Origin: Candidatus Levyibacteriota bacterium
GTDB lineage: Bacteria > Patescibacteriota > Microgenomatia > Levybacterales > UBA12049
DNA length: 64,000 nucleotides
Assembly: GCA_963790825.1 (NCBI GenBank)
Contig: CAWBPM010000002.1
Span: 618,815 to 682,814, forward strand
Reading direction: 5' to 3'
In this document: positions 2,617 to 53,440 of the stretch, in pieces
How the letters are laid out: every line of letters begins with the position of its first letter
Numbering within the stretch: the first letter of the stretch is position 1
Position numbers and translations under genes: made by a program
The notes under the pieces: model-generated
The model's database searches: none
Seen by the model: only the letters and a program-made list of their open reading frames with translations
What the model was told of the DNA's origin: nothing

Positions 2617-4305
2617 CTATTTTTGTTTTAATACAATTGACACTCCGATCGGTGTTCCTGTCAGTTCTTTACATATTTTTTGTAATACTTCCATAGTTTG
2701 CGTGTGACTGAGACGTTCTTTATGAAACTGATATGAGGTTTCAATAATAAGATCTTTTCTATCAAAGCTTTTTATGCTGCAGCCTCTCAGCACTCCGGCG
2801 GTAGTATGATTATGACCCTTCATCGAGTTAATAATGCATTTCCAAAATAGAGTAAGCCATTCCGGTGTAATTTCCCCTTCAGCAGAGTAGTTAAGTAGAT
2901 TGACTGACGCGATATCTACGATGCCGTCTCCATCCGTTTTTTGCTCGATTTCTCCGTAAAGGGCTTTGATTTTGGCAATATTGTTTACCTTTTTACGAAG
3001 TATCGCAACTGATACGTCATTTTCTCCGGAAGTTTTAGTAGCAGTTTTTTCATCTTTTTCCGAAGCAATCACGCTAATCTTTTTTTCATCTTTTTTTTCG
3101 CCTTCTATTTTTTCAAAAGCTTTACACCAGTCAATCAGCGCAATCTCAAGTGGCAATTGCAAAATCGGGGAATTTTTCATATCATTAGAAGCGAAACTGA
3201 AAAGACGAATGAGCTGTTTTATTTCCTCAATACCAAGCTTTATTTCATCTTTTTCAGTTTTTTCATCGGTTGTCACACCAACTTTTTGCAAGATTAGTAG
3301 ATGAAGTTCCTCCACCAATTCACCGGTAAAATATTTCATATCCATACCCTGGCTCACAAGTGTCTCAATCAGCTTTAGTCCTTCTGTTAACTTCCGCTTT
3401 TCAAGTATCCGAAGCATTGCGCTTAAATGAGATGCTATACCTATGATTTGATAGGTTTTATCTATAAATTCTTTTGTAATTTTCTTTCCGTTAGAAAGCG
3501 CCGTAACCTCTTCAAGGAGCTTTGTCGCATCACGAAATCCACCATCTCCCAGGTGAGCAATTTCCAATAATGCTTCTTCATCGATCTCGATTTTTTCCCC
3601 TTTTATAATCCGTTTCAAGGAACGGACGAGTTCCTGATCCGTCGCTTTCGTGAAAACAATCGTGAAACAACGGGAAAGAATCGTTGGAGGAACCTTATGC
3701 TGCTCTGTGGTGCAAAGAATAAACATTGCATGCTGGGGCGGCTCCTCAAGCGTTTTCAGAAGTGCGTTAAATGCTTCACTTGTTAACATGTGCACCTCGT
3801 CAATAATATATATCTTCTTTTTTGCCGAGATTGGAGATAAACGAATTTTATCTTTTAAGTCGCGTATTTCGTCAATTCCGCGGTTAGAAGCTGCGTCAAT
3901 TTCCAAAACGTCCAGGTTCGTGCCATTGGTGATCGAGACACATTGTATACACTTATTGCATGGTTCGATTTGATAAATTTCTTTATCTTCTAATTTTTGA
4001 TTTTTTATCTGTGTTTTTGACTTTTGATCCTTAACTTTTGACCTCCCTACACAATTAACAACCTTGGCAATGATTCGCGCTGAAGAAGTTTTCCCGAGTC
4101 CCTTGGGACCGGCAAAAAGAAACGCGTGGGGGACGGAATCCCACTCAGTGGGATGAGTCCGCCTGTCTTTCGACCCTGAGTTCAAGACCGAAGGGCCTGG
4201 CAGGGGTGGGGGATTTTTGGCTAGGACTGAAAAAAGCGTCTCCCGAACGTGCTTATTATCCAGTTCCTCAATTGTTTGGCCTCGATATTTTCTGTAGAAA
4301 ACCAT
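2617..4305 (-). CDS. dnaX: DNA polymerase III subunit tau/gamma
   Basis: P-loop GPKGLGKTS, Zn-module Cys cluster (CNKCIQC), DEVHML Walker B, LKTLEEPP, sensor SRC, and a C-terminal tau-specific region. Carries the conserved -1 frameshift heptamer (see separate feature). Confidence 0.9.
   Translation of the reverse strand: MVFYRKYRGQTIEELDNKHVRETLFSVLAKNPPPLPGPSVLNSGSKDRRTHPTEWDSVPHAFLFAGPKGLGKTSSARIIAKVVNCVGRSKVKDQKSKTQIKNQKLEDKEIYQIEPCNKCIQCVSITNGTNLDVLEIDAASNRGIDEIRDLKDKIRLSPISAKKKIYIIDEVHMLTSEAFNALLKTLEEPPQHAMFILCTTEQHKVPPTILSRCFTIVFTKATDQELVRSLKRIIKGEKIEIDEEALLEIAHLGDGGFRDATKLLEEVTALSNGKKITKEFIDKTYQIIGIASHLSAMLRILEKRKLTEGLKLIETLVSQGMDMKYFTGELVEELHLLILQKVGVTTDEKTEKDEIKLGIEEIKQLIRLFSFASNDMKNSPILQLPLEIALIDWCKAFEKIEGEKKDEKKISVIASEKDEKTATKTSGENDVSVAILRKKVNNIAKIKALYGEIEQKTDGDGIVDIASVNLLNYSAEGEITPEWLTLFWKCIINSMKGHNHTTAGVLRGCSIKSFDRKDLIIETSYQFHKERLSHTQTMEVLQKICKELTGTPIGVSIVLKQK
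3079..3099 (-). other. dnaX programmed -1 ribosomal frameshift signal: tandem slippery heptamers A_AAA_AAA and A_AAA_AAG
   Basis: The coding strand reads GGC GAA AAA AAA GAT GAA AAA AAG ATT AGC (codons 402-411). A -1 shift at the first site gives AGA TGA. A -1 shift at the second gives GAU UAG. Both terminate within 2 codons, which would produce a gamma-like product of about 405-410 aa, as in E. coli dnaX (A AAA AAG). Confidence 0.6.
4128..4215 (-). other. GC-rich, hairpin-forming in-frame insertion in the dnaX N-terminus (encodes PPPLPGPSVLNSGSKDRRTHPTEWDSVP)
   Basis: About 88 nt of markedly higher GC than the flanking sequence, inserted between the conserved LAKN and HAFLFAGPKGLGKTS segments. 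Contains a perfect ATCCCAC-TCA-GTGGGAT hairpin and G-runs. There is no counterpart in canonical DnaX. Confidence 0.5.
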
Positions 4306-4315
4306 AAAAAAAATT

Positions 4316-4376
4316 AGAATCTAGAATTATAAATTCTAAACTAATTATGAATTCTGAATTTTGAATTCTAGATTCT
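4316..4376. repeat. TRAATTY heptamer / inverted-repeat element (AGAATCTAGAATT ... AATTCTAGATTCT, 13-bp perfect IR with 35-nt spacer containing TGAATTC TGAATTT TGAATTC)
   Basis: Lies between the ybeY stop and the dnaX start. Related elements are at 5903-5999, 7556-7700, 30183-30300 and 50790-50850. Confidence 0.7.
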
Positions 4377-4761
4377 ACTCGTGGTGCATGCCCAGTAAAT
4401 GTAATAATCCATGTTTTACCAGCTCATCAATTTTATCGTCAACCAACACTTCTTCCGCCGCAGCCTCCCTGATTATTTGCGGATATGCCAAAACAATATC
4501 CCCTAACCTGGTAATACCCTCCGGAAGTATTGCTTCTCCGCCTTCGTTAATTGGAAATGATAAAACGTTTGTTGTTTTATCTTTATCTCGGTATTTTTTG
4601 TTCAAAGATCGCATTTTCCTATCTCCCACAATTGCCACGGATACTTCAGTGGGACTACTAATATTATTTTCTCCAATTATTTCCTGAACAGCTTGTTTTA
4701 TCCGTTTTCTATTTACGCTATACCGACTTTCAACAAAGATAAGAACACGAATACTGCTCAT
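4375..4761 (-). CDS. ybeY: rRNA maturation endoribonuclease YbeY
   Basis: 128 aa with a C-terminal HGLLHLLGMHHE metal-binding motif (H..H.....H) typical of YbeY/UPF0054. Confidence 0.85.
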   Translation of the reverse strand: MSSIRVLIFVESRYSVNRKRIKQAVQEIIGENNISSPTEVSVAIVGDRKMRSLNKKYRDKDKTTNVLSFPINEGGEAILPEGITRLGDIVLAYPQIIREAAAEEVLVDDKIDELVKHGLLHLLGMHHE

Positions 4762-5902: not shown

Positions 5903-5999
5903 AAAAGAATTTAAAAATTATAATTCAAAATTCAGAATTAAGTATATAATTTTCAAATTCTAAATTCAATTCTGAAATATAAATTCTTAATTCTAAATT
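5903..5999. repeat. TRAATTY heptamer / inverted-repeat element (AAATTCAGAATT ... AATTCTGAAAT arms)
   Basis: An AT-rich intergenic sequence built of AATTCAA/AATTCAG/AATTCTA units with about 10-bp inverted arms and a 38-nt spacer. Confidence 0.6.
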
Positions 6000-6892
6000 T
6001 TTTCAAGCACTTTTATAAGTTCTTCCAGGCTTAGTTTCGTCGGCACCATTTTCGGGTTTTTTGGTGTTCCGTTTAACAGCATTTTTTTGCTGACATGCAG
6101 GTACCAGCTAGCATCCGGATCAATTTTTTTCAATTTTTCATAGGCTAATGTTAAATCCAGATTGTCTTTTTCAGGATTTTCTGCCGGACGAAGTTTAATC
6201 CGCACATAGCTTTTTCTCGGATCTTTCCTAATAACCAGATTATATCCCATTTTTTGTGAAAGCTTCAGAACCGAATCGTTAATCGTTTTAAAGCCGATTG
6301 CTTTCCCCCATCTGGTTTGAAAAAGAATACCGTTACCGTCTATTTCCCGTTCTGCCCAAATTCTATTTTCAAATTCATGAACTACACTGTCCAGACAAAC
6401 TTTGCCAAACTCCACATAATATTCATCTTCATCCGGCTTTGCCAGTTTCAACCCTTCCAAAACACCGATAAGTGAAAATTCCTGGTAATCGGCAGTCGGG
6501 TTGTTCCAAAATATTTCGCGAAAATGATCAATCTCCACGACTATCTTGATTACTCTATCTATCGCTTTCATATGTTCAGCTCTTAGTACGTCGCCACTTT
6601 TCGTGATTTCTTCTCTTATATAGTCCCAGGTCCTGCTCGCCCCACAAATCGTCAGGTCCGATGTTTCGTGGTGATCGAGTGGTCCCATTCCCGTATCAAC
6701 ATGCACAATCTCGTCTTTGCCGACTTTTTGCATAATATCGCCCATGTCAAGCCCTTTTACCCGCTCAGATCTAAGTCCTGCTGCAACAAATTCCACCGCA
6801 GCGTTCTCCCATCCGCTAAGATATTTTTTAATGAGCCACACAGATGTTATCGCGTCCCAATCAGGCGACGTGTGAGTAACAATAATTTTCAT
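5993..6892 (-). CDS. DHH family phosphoesterase (NrnA-like nanoRNase / pAp phosphatase)
   Basis: N-terminal IVTHTSPDWDAITS (motif I DxD), HVDTG, and GPLDHHE (DHH motif), followed by a DHHA1-like C-terminal half. Confidence 0.75.
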   Translation of the reverse strand: MKIIVTHTSPDWDAITSVWLIKKYLSGWENAAVEFVAAGLRSERVKGLDMGDIMQKVGKDEIVHVDTGMGPLDHHETSDLTICGASRTWDYIREEITKSGDVLRAEHMKAIDRVIKIVVEIDHFREIFWNNPTADYQEFSLIGVLEGLKLAKPDEDEYYVEFGKVCLDSVVHEFENRIWAEREIDGNGILFQTRWGKAIGFKTINDSVLKLSQKMGYNLVIRKDPRKSYVRIKLRPAENPEKDNLDLTLAYEKLKKIDPDASWYLHVSKKMLLNGTPKNPKMVPTKLSLEELIKVLEKI

Positions 6893-7494: not shown

Positions 7495-7555
7495 CCAGCA
7501 AATTACCCTTATTATAGTTCATTAGTCGAGTAGGATCAAATGATTTCAAAATCCA

Positions 7556-7700
7556 GACAGATAAATCCTAAATACTAAGTTCTAAATCCTAAATAAATCC
7601 AAATGTTCAAAATCTTAATTTTAAAACAGTTTTGTATTTTTTTATTTGAATTTTAAAATTATTTAGAATTTAGTGCTTAAGGTTTAGAATTTTTCAGACA
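7556..7700. repeat. AT-rich intergenic repeat cluster (AAATCCTAAATA x2, TTTAGAATTT x3) between convergent genes
   Basis: Direct inspection of the 250-nt gap between 7494 and 7745. Confidence 0.5.
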
Positions 7701-7744
7701 GACGTTGAAATGCTTTTCTGCGCGGGCATGACAGAATGGAACTA

Positions 7745-7972
7745 TTAAACTTCTCCAACGTAGTCAAACCGGGGAACTTGCTTTCCATTCAAAATAACTT
7801 TTTCAGTGAACATTTTAAGAGGTCTTACCCATAATTTACTTAAAGGATTATCATAAAGTGCTTCATATACCACCAAATCTTCCAGGGTTTCGCTATGCTT
7901 TGCTATACCAATCACTCGATATAACTTACCTGTTTTTGTATGTTTGTACATTCCTAGTTTCAGTTTACTCAT
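7745..7972 (-). CDS. DUF1653 domain protein
   Basis: 75 aa. YKHTKTGKLYRVIGIAKHSETLEDLVVYEALYDNPLSKLWVRPLKMF matches the DUF1653 pattern (YRHYKG..Y.V....HTE..E..VVY.....LWVRP..MF). Confidence 0.7.
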   Translation of the reverse strand: MSKLKLGMYKHTKTGKLYRVIGIAKHSETLEDLVVYEALYDNPLSKLWVRPLKMFTEKVILNGKQVPRFDYVGEV

Positions 7973-7996: not shown

Positions 7997-9244
7997 TTAA
8001 GAAGATTTTGCGGCTTGTAATCTCTTTACAACTTCGTCTAAGCTAAGAAGTTCTGCGCCAGCCGCGTTTGATTCGGTTCGCTTTTTCCATTCAATTTTTT
8101 CTTGGGTCTTTAAGCTAATAACCAAACGAACCGGAATTCCGATCAAATCCGCATCGGCAAATTTCTCTCCCGGACCGACTGTTTCCCGATCATCATACAA
8201 AACAGAAATGCCGGCTTTTTGTAGCTCATGATAAACGTTCTCTGCTCTATGTTTCACTATTTCATCATCCAAATTTAAACCAACCAGATGTACTACATAC
8301 GGTGCGACTGCTTCAGGCCAGATAATTCCCTTATCGTCATGAAATACCTCAACTATTGCCCCCAGGAGTCTGGTGAGTCCGATGCCATATGCGCCAAACC
8401 AGGCAAACTGCTCTTTGCCTAAATTATTAGTAAAAGAGACACCCATTTTTTTACTATACTCAATGCCATATTTAAAAATATTTCCTACTTCAATCGCTTT
8501 TTTTGTTTCAATTTCCGGATCTTTTAGTTCTTCCTCGGTCATAATTTCTTTATTTTTCCAAAACTTCCAGCCTTTTTTAAAATAAATTGTGTCTTCTCCG
8601 CTTTCAGATATTACTTGAAATTCATGTGTATGCGAGTTGGTGAAAACTCCGCCCGCAGCTTCGACTACAATTGCCTCCAAATTCATCCTTTTGAATATTT
8701 TCAGATACGCGTCTTTAACTTTCCAGTAGTAATCGTTCATTTCTTCTTCCGTCGCGTGCAGACTATAAAGGTCTTTCATTAAGAATTCCCGCTCCCGTAA
8801 AATGCCGGATTTTGCGCGCAGTTCATTTCTGAATTTAGTTGACATATGGTATAAAAGCAGCGGAAGATCACGATACGTTCTCATATGTTTTCTTGCCACA
8901 TCAAGAAAAATTTCCTCGTGGGTAAATGAAAGTGTAAATTCTTTATCGTTTTTTTTAAGCTTGTACATCACTTCGTCTGCCCGGTCCCACCTTCCCGTTT
9001 CATTCCAAATGTCTTTCGGATGCAGAAGCGGCATAAGCATTTCAGAAGCACCTGTTCTGTTTATTTCTTCGCGAATAATATCCTCGATTTTCCGTTCAAC
9101 AATCCGGCCAAGCGGCAGTAATGTATACGAGCCCGCCATCAATTTATCAATAAATCCACCGCGAAGCAGATACCGCGCATTGATCGCTACTTCGTCTTTT
9201 GGCGCTTCTTTTATGGTTTTCGGGAAGTGATGGGAATACCGCAT
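7997..9244 (-). CDS. proS: proline--tRNA ligase (compact form without the editing-domain insertion)
   Basis: MRYSHHFPKT.KE.P.DE.INARYLLRGGFI...GSYTLLPLG..V..KIEDIIREE, class II motifs, and a C-terminal anticodon-binding domain, 415 aa. Confidence 0.85.
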   Translation of the reverse strand: MRYSHHFPKTIKEAPKDEVAINARYLLRGGFIDKLMAGSYTLLPLGRIVERKIEDIIREEINRTGASEMLMPLLHPKDIWNETGRWDRADEVMYKLKKNDKEFTLSFTHEEIFLDVARKHMRTYRDLPLLLYHMSTKFRNELRAKSGILREREFLMKDLYSLHATEEEMNDYYWKVKDAYLKIFKRMNLEAIVVEAAGGVFTNSHTHEFQVISESGEDTIYFKKGWKFWKNKEIMTEEELKDPEIETKKAIEVGNIFKYGIEYSKKMGVSFTNNLGKEQFAWFGAYGIGLTRLLGAIVEVFHDDKGIIWPEAVAPYVVHLVGLNLDDEIVKHRAENVYHELQKAGISVLYDDRETVGPGEKFADADLIGIPVRLVISLKTQEKIEWKKRTESNAAGAELLSLDEVVKRLQAAKSS

Positions 9245-21933: not shown

Positions 21934-22698
21934 TTATAACTCAATCCCTTGGTCGGTAATGAGGATTGTTTTACAGGCAATATCCGGCCTGGTAAAAAAA
22001 CGAGCCGGAATGTCTTCTTCTTTACCGGAATTAAAGGTTAATTTTAATGCTTGTTTTTTATCATCTCCGAATACTAAAATAAGGAGTACATCAATCATCG
22101 ACAGTCCCAAAAAAGTCATGCTGATCCGCTCTTGATACGTTGCATCAGGATACAGGTACGCACTCACCTGGTCTTGCTCCGACAATTCTGAATTCTGAAT
22201 TCTAAACTCTGAATTTCTGGCCAAAAGGCCTGCCGTATGTCCGTCTTTTCCGATTCCTAAAATAGCCAGACTATTTTGAAATGTTGCATGCATTCCTCGT
22301 ACGACCTGATCATAGTCTTCTGCCGTTTTTTTAAGGTCGGTTTCGGCAGTTATAATCGGAGAGAAACGAATATCCCGCATGTGGAAATAATTAAGCAGCC
22401 CCGAGTCTCTGATCATCGTTTCATTACTGTTCTCGTGAAATTTAGGGCTGAACCGTTCGTCAACTAATCCGACTGCTCCGGGTATCAATTTTTCCTCTTT
22501 GGCCAAGGTTTTGTAAAGCTCTTTTGGAGTATTTCCGCCGGAGAGAAACAAGGTTGTTTTTCTATCAACCAAAAGATAGAGGATTTCTTTACCCAGATCT
22601 AAGCCTTCTTCGCTACCATAAACCGGACAAACTAAAATTCCTGTATTTATAAACGACAAGATATTTTTCGTTTTCAGAAGTTGTATAACTTCTTTCAT
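21934..22698 (-). CDS. pgl: 6-phosphogluconolactonase
   Basis: LSGGNTPKELY and the LGIGKDGHTAGL signature of the 6PGL/NagB family. Carries an unusual in-frame insert NSEFRIQNSELS encoded by TRAATTY heptamer repeats. Confidence 0.75.
   Translation of the reverse strand: MKEVIQLLKTKNILSFINTGILVCPVYGSEEGLDLGKEILYLLVDRKTTLFLSGGNTPKELYKTLAKEEKLIPGAVGLVDERFSPKFHENSNETMIRDSGLLNYFHMRDIRFSPIITAETDLKKTAEDYDQVVRGMHATFQNSLAILGIGKDGHTAGLLARNSEFRIQNSELSEQDQVSAYLYPDATYQERISMTFLGLSMIDVLLILVFGDDKKQALKLTFNSGKEEDIPARFFTRPDIACKTILITDQGIEL
22184..22218. repeat. Five tandem imperfect heptamers (AATTCTG AATTCTG AATTCTA AACTCTG AATTTCT) embedded in-frame in pgl
   Basis: Same TRAATTY motif as the intergenic heptamer elements. 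Translated on the minus strand as part of pgl. Confidence 0.6.
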
Positions 22699-23882
22699 GG
22701 CTTTGCAAATTGTTGCGCGATATCTTTATAGGTGATCAGAATAATAAGCAGCAGAAGAATCGCCATACCGACCTGGTGAATGTAGCCTTCTATTTTCGGA
22801 TTAACTTTCCGACCGGTCACTCCTTCCAGAAGAATAAAAAACAGTCTTCCCCCGTCAAGTGCGGGAATCGGCAGTATGTTGAAAAATGCCAAAGAGATTG
22901 ACAAAATACCTGACAGATTGAGAATCTGAAGAATCCGCTCTTTCATGTTGGGAATTTGCACTATCGTACCGACCAGCGAATAGATGCCGACCGGTCCTGA
23001 AACACCCTGGCTGATTGGCGCTGCGTTTCTTTCTTTGATAGAGACACTGAGGAGCTGTCCCAAAACGTCGAAATTATAGAGCATAAGATTTATCGGATGG
23101 ACAATTCCGGACAATGCTTTTTCTACCGGTGTTTTATAGCTTAATTCGATGCTTTCTGCCGGGAAAAATGCCACGCCTAATGCCCCCTGGTTCTTGGGAG
23201 GATTTACCCTGGGCGTTACACTGCCCGAGTAGGTTTGATTAGTCTCCAGATTTTGCCAGGCAATAGTTATTTTTTTTCCCTTATCTGCCTGTACAATTTT
23301 TACAAATTCGTCAGGACTGGTAACATTTATGCTATTTAGCGAAGTAATTCTTGAATTGACTTGGATACCCGCCATCTCTGCCGGTGAATTTTTCTCTACC
23401 TCACTTACTATAATATCCGATCTTTTCTGCTGCTCAACCAGGAAGAACTTGTGATCGCCGAGAAGCGGCAGCTCCGTATGAAAACTAGAGATAAACATAA
23501 ACGCATAGTAAATCAGAATTGCCAGAATCGCGTTCATAATAACGCCGGCTATGACGACTGCCGCACGTTGACCAACCGACCGAGTGTAAAAAGCCCGCTT
23601 TTCGTCTTCCTTGTTTTTTGTTTCTGTTTTCTCTTCCGCAGGTCCGATTCTTCCTGCCCCTGCTTCATCTTCGCCGTAAAGTTTTACGAATCCGCCAATC
23701 GGCAACCAGTTAATCGAATATTCCGTCTCTCCCCTTTTAATGCTGAATGCTTTGGGTGGAAAGCCGAATCCGAATTCCTCAACTTTTATTCCCAATTTTT
23801 TCGCAACAAAAAAATGTCCCGCTTCGTGGATGAGAACGAGAACCGATAGAATGATGAGAAACGTAATTGCGGTAAGTAGCAT
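22695..23882 (-). CDS. rseP: RIP metalloprotease RseP (site-2 protease)
   Basis: HEAGHF zinc motif in the first TM helix, a central PDZ domain, and a C-terminal LDGG motif (ALDGGRLFF). Confidence 0.85.
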   Translation of the reverse strand: MLLTAITFLIILSVLVLIHEAGHFFVAKKLGIKVEEFGFGFPPKAFSIKRGETEYSINWLPIGGFVKLYGEDEAGAGRIGPAEEKTETKNKEDEKRAFYTRSVGQRAAVVIAGVIMNAILAILIYYAFMFISSFHTELPLLGDHKFFLVEQQKRSDIIVSEVEKNSPAEMAGIQVNSRITSLNSINVTSPDEFVKIVQADKGKKITIAWQNLETNQTYSGSVTPRVNPPKNQGALGVAFFPAESIELSYKTPVEKALSGIVHPINLMLYNFDVLGQLLSVSIKERNAAPISQGVSGPVGIYSLVGTIVQIPNMKERILQILNLSGILSISLAFFNILPIPALDGGRLFFILLEGVTGRKVNPKIEGYIHQVGMAILLLLIILITYKDIAQQFAKP

Positions 23883-23940
23883 TGAGTATTAATTATAGCA
23901 TGTTTAGCATATGAGAGACAGGGAAAGTGTATTAAGTATT

Positions 23941-24112
23941 ATGTAGTAAAAATTCTTCTCTGTTGAGTTTCCGTTGTATTTTTTCGCAGAGACGAATGCT
24001 ACTTAAAAAGTAGGTAAGCTAAAAGACGGTGCGAGTGAATAAGCACCAGTATGAATAGTTTGTTCTAGGTAGGTCTCAAGAAAAAATGCAGAGGAAACGA
24101 AAATAGTTAGGT
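23941..24112. repeat. Mosaic intergenic repeat, copy A
   Basis: Contains module 1 (AATTCTTCTCTGTTGAGTTTCCGTTGTATTTTTTCGCAG, 23951-23989) and module 2 (TAGGTCTCAAGAAAAAATGCAGAGGAAACGAAAATA, 24070-24105). Both recur at 30029-30274, and the TTTTTTCGCA..GACGAATG..TAC core recurs at 44973-44998 and 45892-45918. Confidence 0.7.
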
Positions 24113-25411: not shown

Positions 25412-25652
25412 TCGGATTAAGACCAATGTATTCGGGAAAACTATTCCGGGAGCTGGGAGAAGATGTACCGGATGTAGTGCAGGAGATGGTTATGAATAAT
25501 GAGATTGCATATTCCGAAGCTAGGTTTTTAGTGCCAAATAATAAACCTGTGCTATCGAAGTAATATAATTTCTCTACTAAAAGTATCTTTGTAATCATTT
25601 GACAATAGAACAATTCAACAATCTAACAATTTAATAATCTCCGTCCTCTCCC

Positions 25653-25717
25653 GTCATTCCCGAACCAATCGGATTTGAACTTTGAAATTATTTAGGAGTT
25701 AGTTCGTCAGCTGACGG
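25653..25717. repeat. Intergenic repeat module D (GTCATTCCCGAACCAATC) plus 12-bp palindrome CGTCAGCTGACG
   Basis: 16/18 identical to 30082-30099; palindrome at 25706-25717. Confidence 0.45.
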
Positions 25718-25799
25718 ATTAGAATTTAGAATTTGCCTAAACTTATAGGTCTTTTTAATCTCTTGTGTATCGCTGCTGAATTTACTACAATACAAGAGT

Positions 25800-27326: not shown

Positions 27327-28406
27327 CTAGACGCTACTTTTTGTTGCTGCTTTCTTTGCTTTTTCTGTTTTGACTTTCACTGGTTTTGCAACTTTTTTTT
27401 CTTCTGCTTGCCCTGAGCGAGGTCGAAGGGTTTTCGCCTCTGGTTTTTTTACTGCCTCTTCGGCTTTTTTGGCTTCTTTGGTCTGCCCCACCTGCCCCGC
27501 GCTTTGCCCTTCCGACTTGTCCGGCGAAGCCTTGGCGGAGTTGGAAGCTTTCAGCGAAGGAGAAGAGTCTTGCTTGCCGGTCGAAGCCTTGCTTGCCGGT
27601 CGAAGCCTTGGCGGAGTCTGAGCGGAGTCTGGAGGAAGTGGGGAGCTTTGTTGAAGGGCTTTCTTCTCTGCTTCTAGGGCTGCTTTCGTTGCTTCCTCTT
27701 GTGCACTCTTTTTTCCTTCAATCCACGAATCTACGATATAACTCGTGATTAATTTGATTGAGCCAACTGCATCATCATTAGCGGGAATCGGATAATCAAT
27801 AATCGTCGGATCAGAGTTAGTATCGGTAATTCCGACTGTTGGTACATGCATTTTCCTGGCTTCCCGTACAGCCAAATCCTCAAGGTGCGTATCAATAATA
27901 AAAACCGCGTCAGGTGTATGAATCATTTCCGAAATTCCTCCATAGAAACTCAGTAATTTGGTTCTCTCTTTTTCCCACAGCGATACTTCTTTTTTGGTAT
28001 ATTTTGCTTTTTCCTCAGGGCTTTGCAGATTTTCTTCAAGTGTTTTCAACTTTTTAAAGTTTTTTAATACTTCAGAAAAATTGGTGAGGATACCGCCAAT
28101 CCAACGATTGGTAACGAAATATAAACCTGTTGCCCCTGCTTCATGTGCTCGTTTCGCTTCTTCCAAGACGATGCCTGCAGCCTGTCTCTTCGCGCCGAGC
28201 ATGATCATCGTGCCATCCTTTTTAGCGATACTTCTTACGAAGTTACCCGCCTCTTCGAGTCCTTCTTTAGTTTTGGCTAAATCGATAATGTGGATATTGT
28301 CGCGAGCTTCGAAAACAAAATCGCGGGACTTAGGATTTTGGCGAGTTACTTGGTGGCCAAAATGGCACCCAGCTTCAAGAAGTTCTTCAAGTGTAATTGT
28401 ACGCAT
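27327..28406 (-). CDS. rpsB: 30S ribosomal protein S2 with about 110-aa low-complexity Lys/Ala/Pro-rich C-terminal extension
   Basis: LLEAGCHFGHQ...VTNRWIGGILTNF, then a tail of KASTGKQDSSPSLKASNSAKASPDKSEGQ...KKAATKSSV containing tandem DNA duplications. Confidence 0.9.
   Translation of the reverse strand: MRTITLEELLEAGCHFGHQVTRQNPKSRDFVFEARDNIHIIDLAKTKEGLEEAGNFVRSIAKKDGTMIMLGAKRQAAGIVLEEAKRAHEAGATGLYFVTNRWIGGILTNFSEVLKNFKKLKTLEENLQSPEEKAKYTKKEVSLWEKERTKLLSFYGGISEMIHTPDAVFIIDTHLEDLAVREARKMHVPTVGITDTNSDPTIIDYPIPANDDAVGSIKLITSYIVDSWIEGKKSAQEEATKAALEAEKKALQQSSPLPPDSAQTPPRLRPASKASTGKQDSSPSLKASNSAKASPDKSEGQSAGQVGQTKEAKKAEEAVKKPEAKTLRPRSGQAEEKKVAKPVKVKTEKAKKAATKSSV
27573..27632. repeat. Tandem duplications inside rpsB tail: 19-bp unit CTTGCCGGTCGAAGCCTTG x2, followed by an approx. 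11-bp GCGGAGTCTG(A) x2
   Basis: Direct inspection. The 19 + 11 = 30 nt of duplicated sequence keeps the frame. Confidence 0.7.
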
Positions 28407-30034: not shown

Positions 30035-30300
30035 TAATATAAATAAATTCTTCTATTGAGTTTCCTTTGTATTTTTTCGCAGTCATTCCCGCTCCAATCA
30101 AACATTCTTCCAGGCTTAATTCGCATTCCAAACGACGATTATTTTATAACATCAACGAAATTTAACGTCTTTCATAATAACTTTCAGATCTTTACTTGTG
30201 ATTTTGAATTTTAAATTTTAAATTTATTCGATAGGTCTCAAGAAAAAATGCAGAGGAAACGAAAATAATTAGGTTAATTTTTAATTTTGAATTTTAAATT
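30029..30300. repeat. Mosaic intergenic repeat, copy B (module 1 at 30046-30082, D-like module at 30082-30099, module 2 at 30232-30274, TRAATTY heptamers at 30197-30225 and 30276-30300)
   Basis: Module 2 is 36/36 identical to 24070-24105. Module 1 is about 90% identical to 23951-23989. Confidence 0.7.
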
Positions 30301-30303
30301 CTC

Positions 30304-31632
30304 TTACGGTAGCGGAAATCCTGCAGTAAATGCCTTCACTTCTTTCGCAATTTTTGTTAAATTTTTATTATTGGCGATTTTTTTCCGATATTCCTTCATA
30401 AGTAGACTTCTTTTCTGTTTATCGTCTTTTGGCAGTATCATTCCTTCTACCTCCGCAATTACCAGGTCGTACCATTTGGCGATTTTTTTCATGTCTTTTT
30501 CTTTCATTCCCCTAGTCGTAATTGCCGGAGTCCCGAGTCTGATTCCCGAAGCAAAAAGCGGCGGCATATTGTCTCCCGGTACCCCGTTATAATTAAGGAC
30601 AATCCCCGCTTTTTCGAGTGCTATTGCCCCGACTCTGCCGTTTACTTTTTTATTTCGAAGATCAATGAGAATAAGATGATTATCTGTTCCGCTGCTAACC
30701 AAATCAAATTTTAGCGCTGTTAATTCTAAAGCGAGTGCTTTCGCGTTTTTCACAATCTGCTTATTATATTTTCTAAAACTCGCTGAGTCCGCTTCTTTCA
30801 AAGCAACTGCGATTGCTGCTGTTTGATTATCATGTGGTCCACCCTGAAGTCCGGGAATAATCGCTGTTTCCAATTTAGCCGGTAAATCGGGCATCTTCCG
30901 AAGTCCTTTTTCAGTCACCATAATTATTGCACCCCTCGGCCCCCGAAGCGTTTTATGTGTCGTCGTCGTAATGATGTCGACAAATGGCACAGGACTGGGA
31001 TGCACGCCTGCCAGAATCAAACCGGTGATATGTGAAATATCTGCCATCAGAAAACAGCCGGCTTTCTCGGCTATTTTTCCAAATTTCTCAAAATCAATAA
31101 CTCTCGGATACGCGGTAAATCCGCAGATGAGAAGTTTTGGTTTTTCTGCCAGAACCTGTTTTTCAATAAGATCATAATCTAATAGATTATCTTTTCCAAG
31201 CTTATAATGTACTGCTGTAAAAAACCTGCCGGACAAACCTAACTTATGTCCATGTGTTATATGTCCCCCGCTGGCTAAATCCAATCCCATCAACTTCTCT
31301 CCATTTTGCAAGAGTGCAAAATAGACTGCAGAATTTGCCGGTGATCCGGAAAGCGGCTGGACATTGACATACGGTACGCCAAATAGTTTCTTTGCCCGTT
31401 CTTGCGTTAGAAGTTCGACGCTGTCAATAACTGCATTTCCCTGGTAGTAACGTTTATTGGGAAAACCTTCAGAATATTTATTAGTCAAAACCGAACCGAG
31501 TGCTTCCATGACAGCTTGTGAAGTGTAATTTTCCGAGGGAATCATTTCTAAGACTTCTTTTTGCCGTTTTTCTTCTTGCCGGATAAGGATGTAAATCGCG
31601 GGATCAGTCTTCTTTAAACGCTTCATTATCAC
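30304..31632 (-). CDS. glyA: serine hydroxymethyltransferase
   Basis: PLP-lysine motif TTTTHKTLRGPRGA, GGHITHG, 442 aa. Confidence 0.9.
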   Translation of the reverse strand: MIMKRLKKTDPAIYILIRQEEKRQKEVLEMIPSENYTSQAVMEALGSVLTNKYSEGFPNKRYYQGNAVIDSVELLTQERAKKLFGVPYVNVQPLSGSPANSAVYFALLQNGEKLMGLDLASGGHITHGHKLGLSGRFFTAVHYKLGKDNLLDYDLIEKQVLAEKPKLLICGFTAYPRVIDFEKFGKIAEKAGCFLMADISHITGLILAGVHPSPVPFVDIITTTTHKTLRGPRGAIIMVTEKGLRKMPDLPAKLETAIIPGLQGGPHDNQTAAIAVALKEADSASFRKYNKQIVKNAKALALELTALKFDLVSSGTDNHLILIDLRNKKVNGRVGAIALEKAGIVLNYNGVPGDNMPPLFASGIRLGTPAITTRGMKEKDMKKIAKWYDLVIAEVEGMILPKDDKQKRSLLMKEYRKKIANNKNLTKIAKEVKAFTAGFPLP

Positions 31633-39310: not shown

Positions 39311-39458
39311 GTTTCAGAGCATTATAGCAGGAGAAAGAAAAAGTAAAAAGCAATACTTTAAAGACAATCATTCATTATTGTAACGTATAAAACTGTCTGT
39401 CATTCTGGAGTGGATGCAATCCATAATAGAATCCCTTACAAATAATATGTCATCGCGA

Positions 39459-39557
39459 GCCACGTTCAGTTTACATGAACGTGGCGTGGCGATCTTCTGC
39501 CTAGATTGCTTCTTCTTCGGTAAGTTATAACACTGAGCGAAGCCGAGGTGCTCAGTG
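39459..39557. other. Two perfect stem-loops in a GC-richer 270-nt intergenic region
   Basis: GCCACGTTCA-GTTTACA-TGAACGTGGC (10-bp stem, 39459-39485) and CACTGAGC-11 nt-GCTCAGTG (8-bp stem, 39531-39557). The motif TGTCAT occurs three times in the region. Confidence 0.4.
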
Positions 39558-39604
39558 TCATGACCTGCCGAATCACGACGTGGGACTTTTTACGATAACA
39601 ACAT

Positions 39605-44285: not shown

Positions 44286-44444
44286 AGACAGTAATTATAG
44301 CGCAATAACAGCCTTTAGTAAAGTACGGAAACCTGAGGCTAAAAAGGAGAACAAGGTATTAATTTGAACATAAACTATACTCACATCTCGACGACACCTA
44401 TCATTCTGTAAGCTTATAGTTTAGGAAATTTTTATAAGAATATT

Positions 44445-44939: not shown

Positions 44940-44972
44940 TTTTATATATTGCTTAATTTTGCGTTTGCTTAG

Positions 44973-44998
44973 TGTTTTTTCGCAATGACGAATGTTAC
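44973..44998. repeat. Intergenic repeat core GTGTTTTTTCGCAATGACGAATGTTAC (family of 23976-24002)
   Basis: 23/27 identical to copy A. Confidence 0.5.
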
Positions 44999-45140
44999 AC
45001 CCTGCCTGCTAGATAACAAATAAAGGTACGAGTTATATAGGCACCCAGTTTTTTATTTGTTCTCAAGAACCGGTCATAAGAAAAAATACTGAGCAAACGT
45101 ATCTAGTTTTGTTCTTACCCTTGTATTTTAACACAGAATA

Positions 45141-47706: not shown

Positions 47707-47737
47707 TTACTATGTATTATAGTATATTGCGAGTAGC

Positions 47738-50789: not shown

Positions 50790-50850
50790 TACGCATGCTT
50801 TCTAATTTAATTTTGAATTATGAATTTTAAATTTTGAATTTTTTATACTT
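50790..50850. repeat. TRAATTY heptamer tandem element (TAATTT TGAATTA TGAATTT TAAATTT TGAATTT)
   Basis: Lies between the thyA start and the stop of the dcd-like gene. Confidence 0.6.
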
Positions 50851-51382: not shown

Positions 51383-51509
51383 AAATTTATATATGCCTTA
51401 ATTTACTTATACCTTTTTACTAAATTCACTATCCTTCCGTCAAGTGGCTTTTTCCAATTTGTCATCCTGAGTTTATCTTATCCTTCCGAAATTTTAATGA
51501 AGGGGGATT

Positions 51510-52517
51510 TCAGGATCTCTTTTCGCTTTCATCTGCTAATTTTACCAATTCATTATATTGCTCACCTATTTGAGTAATCGCAAAAGGACTATCTTTTCTG
51601 CTTTTCAATTGATAAATAGTGACAGGTAACGTCGTAATGAGTTCTGCAAGTTTTACTTGAGATGTTAACGTATCTTTTTTATTATCAGTATTAACTTCTG
51701 TAACGATCGGTATCCCCCCGACTTCGTCTACCTGTGAAACCCCGGCTTGCAAATCAGCCCTGTTATACGCATGGACTGCCATATCGACATTTTGTATCTG
51801 AATGCTCTGGTTAAGAAGCGCTGTTATATACTGCCCAAATTGCTGGTAATGAATTGACGGTCCTGAAATGGCAGCCAGAATTGGCGTAACCGGACGGCTG
51901 AGATGAAGAGATTTTAAAACAGCCAGAGTCTCTTTCGTAAAATAAGCAAACGTATCATAATTTTGATCCCACCAAAAGTTCGACTCATTCGGTTCATTCC
52001 CTATTTCAAGCCATTCCACGCTTTTATGCTCAGTAATCGCCAGGAGATCCAATTTTATGAATTCTTTAATTTGGGTTTCATTTTGCTTAAGTTCCGAAAC
52101 TGTCTTGGGCATTGAGTGAATAAAACGAAGGACCGCACCGTTATCGACAAATGTGTAAAAAGGAAGCTCTCCGGGATCATAACAGAAAATTACTTTTTTA
52201 TTTTCTTTATCTGCCTCGGTCAGTTCTTCTTCAACCTGAGGATTATTTTCAAAAGTACCATCTACACTGACCAGAGAAGTAGGACTGCCGATTCGCAAGG
52301 TATTAATATGCAGTTTATCTGTCCCTTCTATCATTGACTGTTCAGAAACACTAACACCTATTCGTGAGTCATAGCTTGTTGTAGTTGTTTGAGAAGCAGA
52401 AACAGTTTCGGACGGATGAGGAAAACCTGTAGAATAGAAGGTAGAAGACAAAAGAGCAACAGATCCTAATATTTTTCTTATTTGGTTCCTAGGCTTTAGT
52501 TTTTCAACCTGCGCCAT
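51510..52517 (-). CDS. secreted glycoside-hydrolase-like protein (clan GH-A-like, NEP motif)
   Basis: N-terminal signal-like segment ILGSVALLSSTFYSTG. WLEIGNEPN is a typical catalytic acid/base motif of GH5/GH-A TIM-barrel enzymes. Confidence 0.45.
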   Translation of the reverse strand: MAQVEKLKPRNQIRKILGSVALLSSTFYSTGFPHPSETVSASQTTTTSYDSRIGVSVSEQSMIEGTDKLHINTLRIGSPTSLVSVDGTFENNPQVEEELTEADKENKKVIFCYDPGELPFYTFVDNGAVLRFIHSMPKTVSELKQNETQIKEFIKLDLLAITEHKSVEWLEIGNEPNESNFWWDQNYDTFAYFTKETLAVLKSLHLSRPVTPILAAISGPSIHYQQFGQYITALLNQSIQIQNVDMAVHAYNRADLQAGVSQVDEVGGIPIVTEVNTDNKKDTLTSQVKLAELITTLPVTIYQLKSRKDSPFAITQIGEQYNELVKLADESEKRS

Positions 52518-52550: not shown

Positions 52551-52636
52551 ATAACCAATAACCAATAACCAATAACCAATAACCAATAACCAATAACCAA
52601 TAACCAATAACCAATAACCAATAACCAATAACCAAT
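52551..52636. repeat. Heptanucleotide microsatellite (ATAACCA)x12 in divergent promoter region
   Basis: Twelve perfect tandem copies at 52551-52634 plus a partial AT, lying between the start of the minus-strand GH-like gene (52517) and the start of the plus-strand Cys-rich protein gene (52679). A TTGACA lies immediately downstream at 52643-52648. Confidence 0.95.
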
Positions 52637-52678: not shown

Positions 52679-53440
52679 ATGAGGCTCTTCGCTAAATTGG
52701 TAATCTCGTTTTTTGTTTTTACGTTATTTATTTTTAATCCTCCTAAGATGTTCGCAGTTACTGCTCCCCCTATTTGTAGCGCAGTGACCGCGTTTAATCT
52801 TACCTGTTCTCTTTCGGGTACAGCTACGTTTACAGCTTCTTGGGATTTATCTGCATATGGAGTACCAGCAGCTAGTAATATTTGCAATATTTATGTTTAT
52901 GCTGGCAGCAATGCCCATACTATTAGTCATACGTGTGCTGGCAGCAATGTTAGCATTACGGTTCCTGCTGATAATTCTCCGACTGTTTCAATCTACGTAA
53001 GCAATGGAATTATTGGTGATGTATGTTATAATGCTCCTCAAGGCACCATAAATAATGCTTGTGCTCCTCCCACTGCTACACCAATCCCTGCTCCTACTAC
53101 TCCCCCTGTTAACATTTATGCAGGCTGCGAAGGCAGCGCGGCAGACAACGCGGCTGACGTCTGGAAGCTAGATTGTATTCCTGTTGTCGCAGGACAACTG
53201 GTTAATTATGCTCTCATTTTCCTAGGAATCGTCGCGGTTATATTTATTATCTATGCGGGCTACAAGTTTATTACTTCCCGCGGTGATCCGAAGCAGGTTG
53301 AAGGAGCCAGAAAAATTATTACTTACGTTCTTATCGGCATCACGATTATTTTACTTTCATTCTCTATTATAGCCTTCATTGCATATATTACGGGCGTAAC
53401 ATGTATCGATGGCTTTAGTCTACATGCATGTAACACGTAA
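52679..53440 (+). CDS. secreted Cys-rich protein with TrbC/VirB2-pilin-like C-terminal hydrophobic hairpin
   Basis: Signal peptide, then a 150-aa Cys/Thr/Ala-rich region (10 Cys) with a PTATPIPAPTTPP linker. C-terminal LVNYALIFLGIVAVIFIIYAGYKFITSRG...IITYVLIGITIILL has two TM segments with a short basic loop, as in TrbC/VirB2 pilins. Confidence 0.45.
   Translation: MRLFAKLVISFFVFTLFIFNPPKMFAVTAPPICSAVTAFNLTCSLSGTATFTASWDLSAYGVPAASNICNIYVYAGSNAHTISHTCAGSNVSITVPADNSPTVSIYVSNGIIGDVCYNAPQGTINNACAPPTATPIPAPTTPPVNIYAGCEGSAADNAADVWKLDCIPVVAGQLVNYALIFLGIVAVIFIIYAGYKFITSRGDPKQVEGARKIITYVLIGITIILLSFSIIAFIAYITGVTCIDGFSLHACNT

Follow-up and report, generated by a model that had tools for sequence, protein, structure and literature searches.

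The spacers between several genes of a Candidatus Levyibacteriota genome contain AT-rich heptamers that recur in tandem. They raise the question of whether these heptamers form a genuine repeat family and, if so, whether the family is best viewed as terminators, mobile elements, promoter or regulator sites, or simple-sequence repeats. The DNA considered here, termed the window, is the whole analysed stretch of 64,000 nucleotides (64 kb).

Gene content and promoter style of the window

The window has a G+C content of about 40%, and its housekeeping genes include dnaX, ybeY, HIT-family and DHH-family genes, glyA (SHMT), dcd, thyA, frr, rpsB and the gene of an RseP-like protease. The closest match of its SHMT belongs to Candidatus Levyibacteriota (80% identity), and the next relatives are other Patescibacteria. 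A tRNA scan of the window found no tRNA gene, and an Rfam scan found no family at the gathering score.

In many of the genes a TATAAT hexamer, or a one-mismatch variant thereof (TATACT, TATAGT), is located 6-12 nt 5' of the ATG (for example, at 23883-23900, 39311-39330, 44286-44305 and 47707-47725), often preceded by GC. Other genes of the window carry a GGAGG ribosome-binding site in place of the near-ATG TATAAT. This arrangement suggests that the promoters of the window are dominated by the -10 box. Many of the mRNAs are probably leaderless, because the TATAAT-type box lies so close to the ATG.

A family of tandem heptamers with the unit AATTYTR

The first-pass annotation had described a family of AT-rich TRAATTY heptamers in at least five intergenic regions. 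Such sequences were indeed found at all five positions, in excess over shuffled DNA, and the family is non-random. Its unit is better described as that of a period-7 tandem array, which reads AATTYTR on the forward strand and, equivalently, YARAATT on the reverse strand, the latter being the sense strand of the neighbouring genes. The members are as follows.

4315-4377: element 1, a near-palindromic array with arms at 4315-4345 and 4347-4377
5905-6002: element 2, arrays in both orientations, with AATTYTR on the reverse strand at 5919-5939 and on the forward strand at 5956-6002
7562-7694: element 3, inverted arrays of variant units, TAAATCC-type on the left and TTTAGAA-type on the right
22184-22211, forward strand: array of four units of AATTCTG type, inside a 6-phosphogluconolactonase-like (pgl) gene (21934-22698, reverse strand)
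30200-30227, forward strand: left array of element 4, GATTTTG AATTTTA AATTTTA AATTTAT, inside a MITE-like element (30060-30260)
30276-30303, forward strand: right array of element 4, four units, running up to the SHMT stop codon (30304-30306)
50809-50843, forward strand: element 5, a direct array of five units, reaching the dcd stop codon (50843-50845)

The annotation had itself proposed base composition as the explanation to be excluded, and the heptamer frequency is clearly not explained by it, as judged by two kinds of count against shuffled sequence. At lag 7, the window contains six arrays in which at least 17 of 21 positions match, compared to 0.05 expected from 200 local (100-nt block) dinucleotide-preserving shuffles. 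The other lags from 4 to 15 yield none or one array each, except for lag 14, the double period, which yields three. A single unit, AATTYTR on the forward strand, is common to five of the six lag-7 arrays. A weight-matrix scan detected seven arrays of at least three in-phase AATTYTR units (0.01 expected) and 22 in-phase AATTYTR pairs (4.0 expected); these latter counts are partly circular, because the matrix was derived from the arrays themselves, whereas the lag-7 test is independent of the matrix. The autocorrelation of intergenic DNA shows peaks at lags 7, 14, 21 and 28, with none in coding DNA, and Tandem Repeats Finder also reports period-7 rows in the window. The suggestion that the elements are rich in EcoRI sites was not borne out: GAATTC occurs 27 times in the window, compared to 20.5 expected, and only four of the copies are within arrays.

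The AATTYTR arrays start at dispersed loci (4343, 5919, 5982, 22184, 30200, 30276 and 50809). The members share no non-repeat core, their lengths span 28-135 nt, and most of them are direct arrays that lack inverted ends. All of the direct arrays have one orientation and are co-oriented with the genes; this could be functional, and it is inseparable from replication-strand bias. Within the units, it is only positions 5 and 7 that vary; the AATT and the T in position 6 are nearly invariant, a pattern that could reflect selection.

In four cases an array adjoins or runs into the stop codon of the upstream gene (ybeY, 4375; the DHH gene, 5993; SHMT, 30304; dcd, 50843). Elements 1 and 2 occupy the entire spacer between co-directional genes, and elements 3 and 4 are located between convergent genes. 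The five stretches originally listed as intergenic are all present, but the family is not purely intergenic, because the member at 22184-22211 lies inside a coding sequence. There it encodes ...NSEFRIQNSE... in a variable loop of the pgl product, and the Pfam Glucosamine_iso match spans the array; in pgl orthologues the DNA at this site is non-periodic. The AATTYTR arrays are thus real, and they are best read as a heptanucleotide simple-sequence repeat family, STRR-like in the broad sense.

Inverted arrays and possible intrinsic termination

Two of the elements had been credited with inverted arms around a spacer of roughly 36 nt. This holds for the pair 4316-4328/4364-4376, which is separated by 35 nt, but not for the pair 5928-5939/5968-5978, for which the distance is 28 nt. 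Because the unit has a palindromic AATT core, the hairpins were compared with 500 random direct arrays of the same near-palindromic units.

The arms of element 1 are 31 nt long and 81% complementary, and 4343-4377 on the forward strand consists of five AATTYTR units, the last of which contains the ybeY stop codon (4375-4377). The element fills the whole ybeY-dnaX spacer. Its reverse-strand RNA folds at -22.5 kcal/mol (z -4.86), stronger than all of the same-unit direct arrays (0 of 500 reach this value). On the sense strand, the ybeY stop codon marks the beginning of the hairpin, after which come AAUUUUUUUU and the dnaX ATG, in this order.

4306-4313, reverse strand: run of 8 T, directly after the element 1 hairpin and just before the dnaX ATG (4303-4305)

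The hairpin with its U8 tract has the shape of an intrinsic terminator and may function as one. Element 2 takes up the DHH-HIT spacer and extends into the end of the DHH gene, covering its last codons and its stop codon (5993-5995). It folds at -23.9 kcal/mol (z -4.12), but beyond what its self-complementary units would give there is no support for a true inverted repeat, the fold being no better than those of same-unit direct arrays (14%). Element 3, which separates two convergent genes, forms a long AU hairpin. It folds at -25.5 kcal/mol on the forward strand (z -2.96) and at -32.1 kcal/mol on the reverse strand (z -4.58), is stronger than 98% of same-unit direct arrays, and is followed by U5 on the forward strand.

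7745-7972, reverse strand: DUF1653 gene, bounding the gap that holds element 3
7997-9244: class II aminoacyl-tRNA synthetase gene

These folds invite a reading of the elements as AU-rich intrinsic terminators or transcription insulators, in which inverted arrays end the upstream transcript before the next, often leaderless, unit. Element 1, with its hairpin at a stop codon and the T-rich tract behind it, and element 3, with folds on both strands between convergent genes, are consistent with such a role. In a related Wolfebacteria locus (L065), inverted arrays of the non-palindromic unit ATAACTN are located between co-directional genes and carry a U-rich tail, and a similar inverted pair occurs in another CPR locus (L036). 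Moreover, genes with a TATAAT 6-12 nt before the ATG, being probably leaderless, would need clean transcript boundaries. As an account of the family, however, we consider termination unlikely: no fold is seen in element 4, element 5 or the pgl array (z +0.6 to +1.3), the fold of element 2 is no better than its unit composition predicts, the stems are almost devoid of G-C pairs and their loops are large, and a consensus terminator scan flagged none of them.

Possible mobile elements

Element 3 is flanked by an 8-base direct repeat, which occurs only twice in the window, exactly at the two ends of the element, and which may represent a target-site duplication. The right half of the element has a second copy at 25673-25733.

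7554-7561, forward strand: left copy of CAGACAGA
7695-7702, forward strand: right copy of CAGACAGA
25720-25733, reverse strand: two-unit array, AATTCTA AATTCTA, at the second copy of the right half of element 3

A separate family of MITE-like elements is also present in the window. Its three members (132-201 bp; 23967-24098, 30060-30260 and 44963-45098) possess inward-facing 19-nt inverted ends, GTTTCCTYTGYATTTTTTC, for which six matches were found compared to 0.29 expected. A heptamer array is located inside the second copy, and another follows it. The inverted end is absent from all 98 related loci that were fetched. Two of the copies harbor a mini-ORF, ATG CAG AGG AAA CGA AAA plus stop (MQRKRK; 24087-24107 and 30249-30269, forward strand), and the stop codon differs between them (TAG versus TAA).

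The heptamer elements had been proposed to be REP- or MITE-like; on this reading, each array would be one arm, or what is left, of a small non-autonomous transposable element. The inverted arms of element 3 and the restriction of CAGACAGA to its two ends, the second copy of its right half, the physical joining of element 4 to a real MITE-like family and the presence of same-unit arrays at unrelated loci, one of them within a gene, would all accord with mobility. Nonetheless, only element 3 looks like an insertion. Elements 1, 2, 4 and 5 and the pgl array have neither a shared non-repeat core nor defined ends, most members are direct arrays, lengths change by unit steps, and related genomes differ by whole units within arrays rather than by the presence or absence of whole elements. 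Inverted ends and several homologous full-length copies are features of the separate MITE-like family and not of the heptamer arrays as a set, and elements 1 and 3 are palindromic, as REP/BIME sequences would be, yet the members have no common palindrome consensus. A mobile origin of the family is accordingly judged quite improbable.

Other period-7 DNA in the window

The same period is found in the window with other units, both in a spacer and in the coding sequences of two proteins.

52551-52636, forward strand: perfect (ATAACCA)x12.3 array
3993-4028, reverse strand: period-7 stretch of RTCAAAA units (sense strand), encoding a lysine-rich DnaX loop, ...KVKDQKSKTQIKNQK...
23605-23635, reverse strand: weaker period-7 stretch of AGAAAAC-type units (sense strand), encoding a loop of the RseP-like protease

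The ATAACCA array is positioned between the divergent promoters of 51510-52517 (reverse strand) and a T4SS-pilin-like gene (52679-53440, forward strand). In this respect it shares the contingency-locus anatomy of the hmw-type phase-variable 7-bp promoter repeats of H. influenzae (PMC8262952, PMC12721329). Unlike the hmw-type repeats, the AATTYTR arrays are short and imperfect and should therefore mutate far less often. Arrays also occur in the same DnaX loop in one related genome (L032) and in the same RseP loop in two others (L006 and L009).

Period 7 in related CPR genomes

The occurrence of tandem arrays was compared among 53 CPR loci around SHMT, 12 CPR loci around dnaX and 24 non-CPR loci at the same G+C.

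53 CPR loci around SHMT, 860 kb: 47 period-7 arrays, 0.3 expected; other periods at most 9 each, lag 14 with 22
12 CPR loci around dnaX, 101 kb: 6 period-7 arrays, 0.2 expected; other periods at most 3 each
24 non-CPR loci, same G+C, 363 kb: 1 period-7 array, 0.9 expected; other periods at most 5 each

The contrast is one between 65 CPR loci near two genes and a narrow non-CPR set dominated by Halanaerobium. At the chosen threshold, the density of arrays is about 55-94 per Mb. Each genome has units of its own, which recur within it (AGCAAAA, ATCAAAA, TAGAAAT, CATAATT, TTTTGAA and TTCGAAC); ATCAAAA, for example, is found in three genes of L009, and TTCGAAC in both FolD and a spacer of L036.

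Among the 59 arrays of the CPR loci and the window, about half (28 arrays) are inside conserved coding sequences, where homologue alignments span them. The genes concerned include those of FolD, SHMT, ThyA, RseP, DHFR, GuaA, RecR and DnaX. In FolD, whose gene is about 1-2 kb downstream of glyA, a period-7 array is present at one alignment position, with no change in length, in five orthologues (L036, L037, L047, L077 and L059), and the five units are all different (TTCGAAC, TGAACTT, CTAACAA, CTAAAAG and CTACTCA). A sixth FolD (L060) exhibits period 7 in the same segment at the lag-7 and peptide level only. The array encodes a linker segment before the VAVVG motif, and it looks like a case of concerted evolution of a repeat inside a conserved enzyme.

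Differences in unit number were observed in two pairs of CPR genomes, rather than in strains of the window genome. In two related Levybacteria genomes, the (AGCAAAA)n arrays of thyA (L006, 8001-8044; L007, 8070-8105) are exactly 7 nt, or one unit, apart. The three-unit version of L007 runs into an in-frame TGA, such that this gene would be either frameshifted or heterogeneous in the population. Likewise, L080 and L081 differ by exactly 14 nt within an array. The flanks of the arrays are about 90% identical in both pairs.

In two further relatives (L003 and L002), period-7 arrays directly follow the SHMT stop codon, with units different from those of the window. The closest relative (L001) has no such arrays across the syntenic 21 kb. 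A metagenome scan with DnaX for orthologous ybeY-dnaX junctions returned only relatives at 24-41% identity.

Possible promoter and regulator sites

Read on the sense strand, the units of the window include TAGAAT, TAAAAT, CATAAT and TATAAT, and could thus constitute promoter-related DNA, i.e., clusters of -10-like hexamers (YARAAT), UP-like AT tracts, or sites of a global regulator or nucleoid protein. The arrays upstream of dnaX and the HIT gene contain TATAAT at a distance of 20 and 16 nt, respectively, from the ATG, and a promoter scan found matches in both spacers (in element 1, TAGAAT sites of -10 type; in element 2, TTGAAT-17-TATACT). The near-invariance of the AATT and T6 is also in keeping with a binding site. 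CATAATT-type arrays of two relatives (L032 and L025) end 0-10 nt from predicted starts. The closeness of arrays to starts is, however, partly an artefact, because the units contain stop codons and thereby force the longest-ORF start calls; arrays that abut start codons in relatives were for this reason set aside as unreliable.

Other observations make a promoter or regulator role of the family very doubtful. Elements 3 and 4 are in convergent gaps, about 190 nt separate element 5 from the next start codon, that of thyA, and the pgl array is located within a gene. The hexamers lack a suitably spaced TGn or -35 partner, and the 7-base register gives spacers of 15 or 22 nt. The UP elements suggested by the first-pass annotation fare no better, as the positions of elements 3 and 4 and of the coding array do not suit them, and the arrays of elements 1 and 2 overlap the -10 region itself instead of being placed 5' of a -35 box. 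Its global-regulator sites do not fit the whole set either: at the same positions, the period-7 arrays of relatives are built from different units, which argues against a single sequence-specific binding protein. HutP-like UAG-N4 sites, heptamer binding by cold-shock proteins and Rho loading sites were considered as well, and none of them is claimed.

Origin of the arrays

The explanation that we favor as the probable one is that the elements are genome-specific heptanucleotide simple-sequence repeats that slippage produces and turns over. Misalignment of slipped strands during replication, in steps of 7 bases, would create and homogenise the arrays, which would fill whatever DNA tolerates variation, i.e., short spacers, up to or over the stop codons, and a tolerant protein loop. 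The palindromic AATT core would favor hairpins and occasional strand switching, and inverted arrays such as elements 1 and 3 would follow from this. Counted in favor of slippage are the exclusive period of 7, the presence of other units with the same period, the excess of period 7 in the CPR loci compared to the non-CPR loci, the unit-step indels and the turnover in place, as well as the extension of the arrays to the coding boundary and their lability, including their absence from L001. No dedicated function would be needed to explain the arrays. Any effects on termination or insulation (elements 1 and 3) and on promoters (the YARAAT -10-like hexamers upstream of dnaX and HIT) would be by-products, and they are ranked as such because elements 4 and 5 and the coding arrays suit neither role.

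The period and the indels are accounted for by slippage, but the recurrence of one unit at unrelated loci of one genome is not. The fact that each genome favors a unit in this manner hints that units spread by a templated or recombination-based route, or that replication and repair in CPR bacteria have some peculiarity. We raise, tentatively, the possibility of a lineage-wide CPR/Patescibacteria process that keeps creating and replacing 7-base units wherever the sequence is free to vary, both in spacers and in the loops of conserved proteins (FolD, SHMT, ThyA, RseP, DnaX, RecR and GuaA), with each genome favoring its own unit at unrelated loci.

Comparison with known heptanucleotide repeats

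The STRR of heterocystous cyanobacteria (Calothrix, Nostoc and Anabaena) consist of tandem 7-nt units, with a few genome-specific units, such as CCCCAGT, TTGGTCA and CAACAGT, at many dispersed and mostly intergenic loci. We know of no established function for them. Like the STRR, the arrays of the window are composed of tandem, genome-specific 7-nt units at dispersed loci; unlike them, they belong to a CPR (Levybacteria) genome, are short (3-5 units), degenerate and AT-rich (AATTYTR), and are accompanied by period 7 in protein loops. STRR proper, or a cyanobacterial origin, was rejected: CCCCAGT, TTGGTCA and CAACAGT occur 0-8 times in the window and form no Tandem Repeats Finder array, and HIP1 is absent.

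Heptanucleotides are the most over-represented long simple-sequence repeats in many bacteria, for which polymerase slippage has been proposed (PMC4679880, PMC4692102). According to the survey of Mrazek et al. (2007), as summarised in the same two papers, a length of 7 is favored among units of 5-11 nt, mostly in non-coding DNA and by slippage; three Calothrix heptanucleotides are mentioned in PMC4692102. As far as these summaries go, the window resembles the surveyed genomes in its preference for period 7 and in the proposed slippage origin, but in the present set about half of the arrays are in conserved coding sequences, and the density is high. The survey reportedly predates the CPR genomes.

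Additional heptamers provide closer parallels to individual features. The TAACTGA repeats of marine Beggiatoaceae, some cyanobacteria and Bacteroidetes occur in 2-6 copies at many intergenic sites, often at coding boundaries and for the most part immediately 5' of a start codon, and they have been proposed to act in translation; their units contain stop codons, and the few arrays within ORFs give rise to 7-residue peptide repeats (PMC4679880). Similarly, the AATTYTR arrays represent one heptamer at coding boundaries, with stop codons in its units and one array inside an ORF. The unit is different, however, and here four arrays abut the stop codon of the upstream gene and two are in convergent gaps. 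The intergenic heptamers GGGAATC (Xanthomonas) and GGGGAYT (Nostoc) include inverted pairs able to form stem-loops, vary widely in length and sequence between close relatives at the same intergenic positions and, being G-rich, are able to form quadruplexes (PMC4692102). The AATTYTR family likewise comprises intergenic heptamers, some of them as inverted pairs, but it is AT-rich with a palindromic AATT core and cannot form quadruplexes.

A search of the literature yielded no report of heptamers or simple-sequence repeats in CPR/Patescibacteria in its searchable part. Considered alone, AATTYTR adds one more heptanucleotide repeat family to a known and poorly understood class. The wider pattern matters more: period 7 dominates the tandem repeats of the sampled CPR loci, with about half of the arrays in conserved genes, and this CPR-wide excess, protein loops included, is the part worth following up. 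If it extends genome-wide, it would point to a mutational force, both strong and specific, by which spacers and protein loops are shaped across a major uncultivated radiation, and would offer a natural system in which to test the polymerase-slippage account of the "magic" length 7. It would also warn annotators that low-complexity loops and frameshifts in CPR genes, as in the thyA of L007, can stem from unit slippage.

Other repeats in the window

The ribosomal protein S2 gene contains a perfect 19-nt tandem repeat (2.2 copies, 27569-27610) downstream of its Pfam Ribosomal_S2 match; the encoded protein is unusually long (359 residues), and the match covers residues 9-231. The segment 60426-62490 contains two repeated blocks, of 222 and 300 nt, whose copies lie about 1.3 kb from each other and are 69-75% identical; Thr/Pro-rich coding repeats of 66 and 30 nt are present as well. 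All of these repeats fall within neighbouring genes for large surface proteins that have VWA, SdrD_B, cohesin-like and dockerin-like domains. Finally, the long spacers (25651-25670, 30083-30100, 39400-39600 and 51469-51480) contain recurring GTCATTCCCG, GTCATCGCGAG and GTCATCCTGAG modules together with GC-rich hairpins, such as tgtcatcgcgagccacg...cgtggcgtggcgatc near 39440-39500, and these modules and hairpins may represent another small repeat family.
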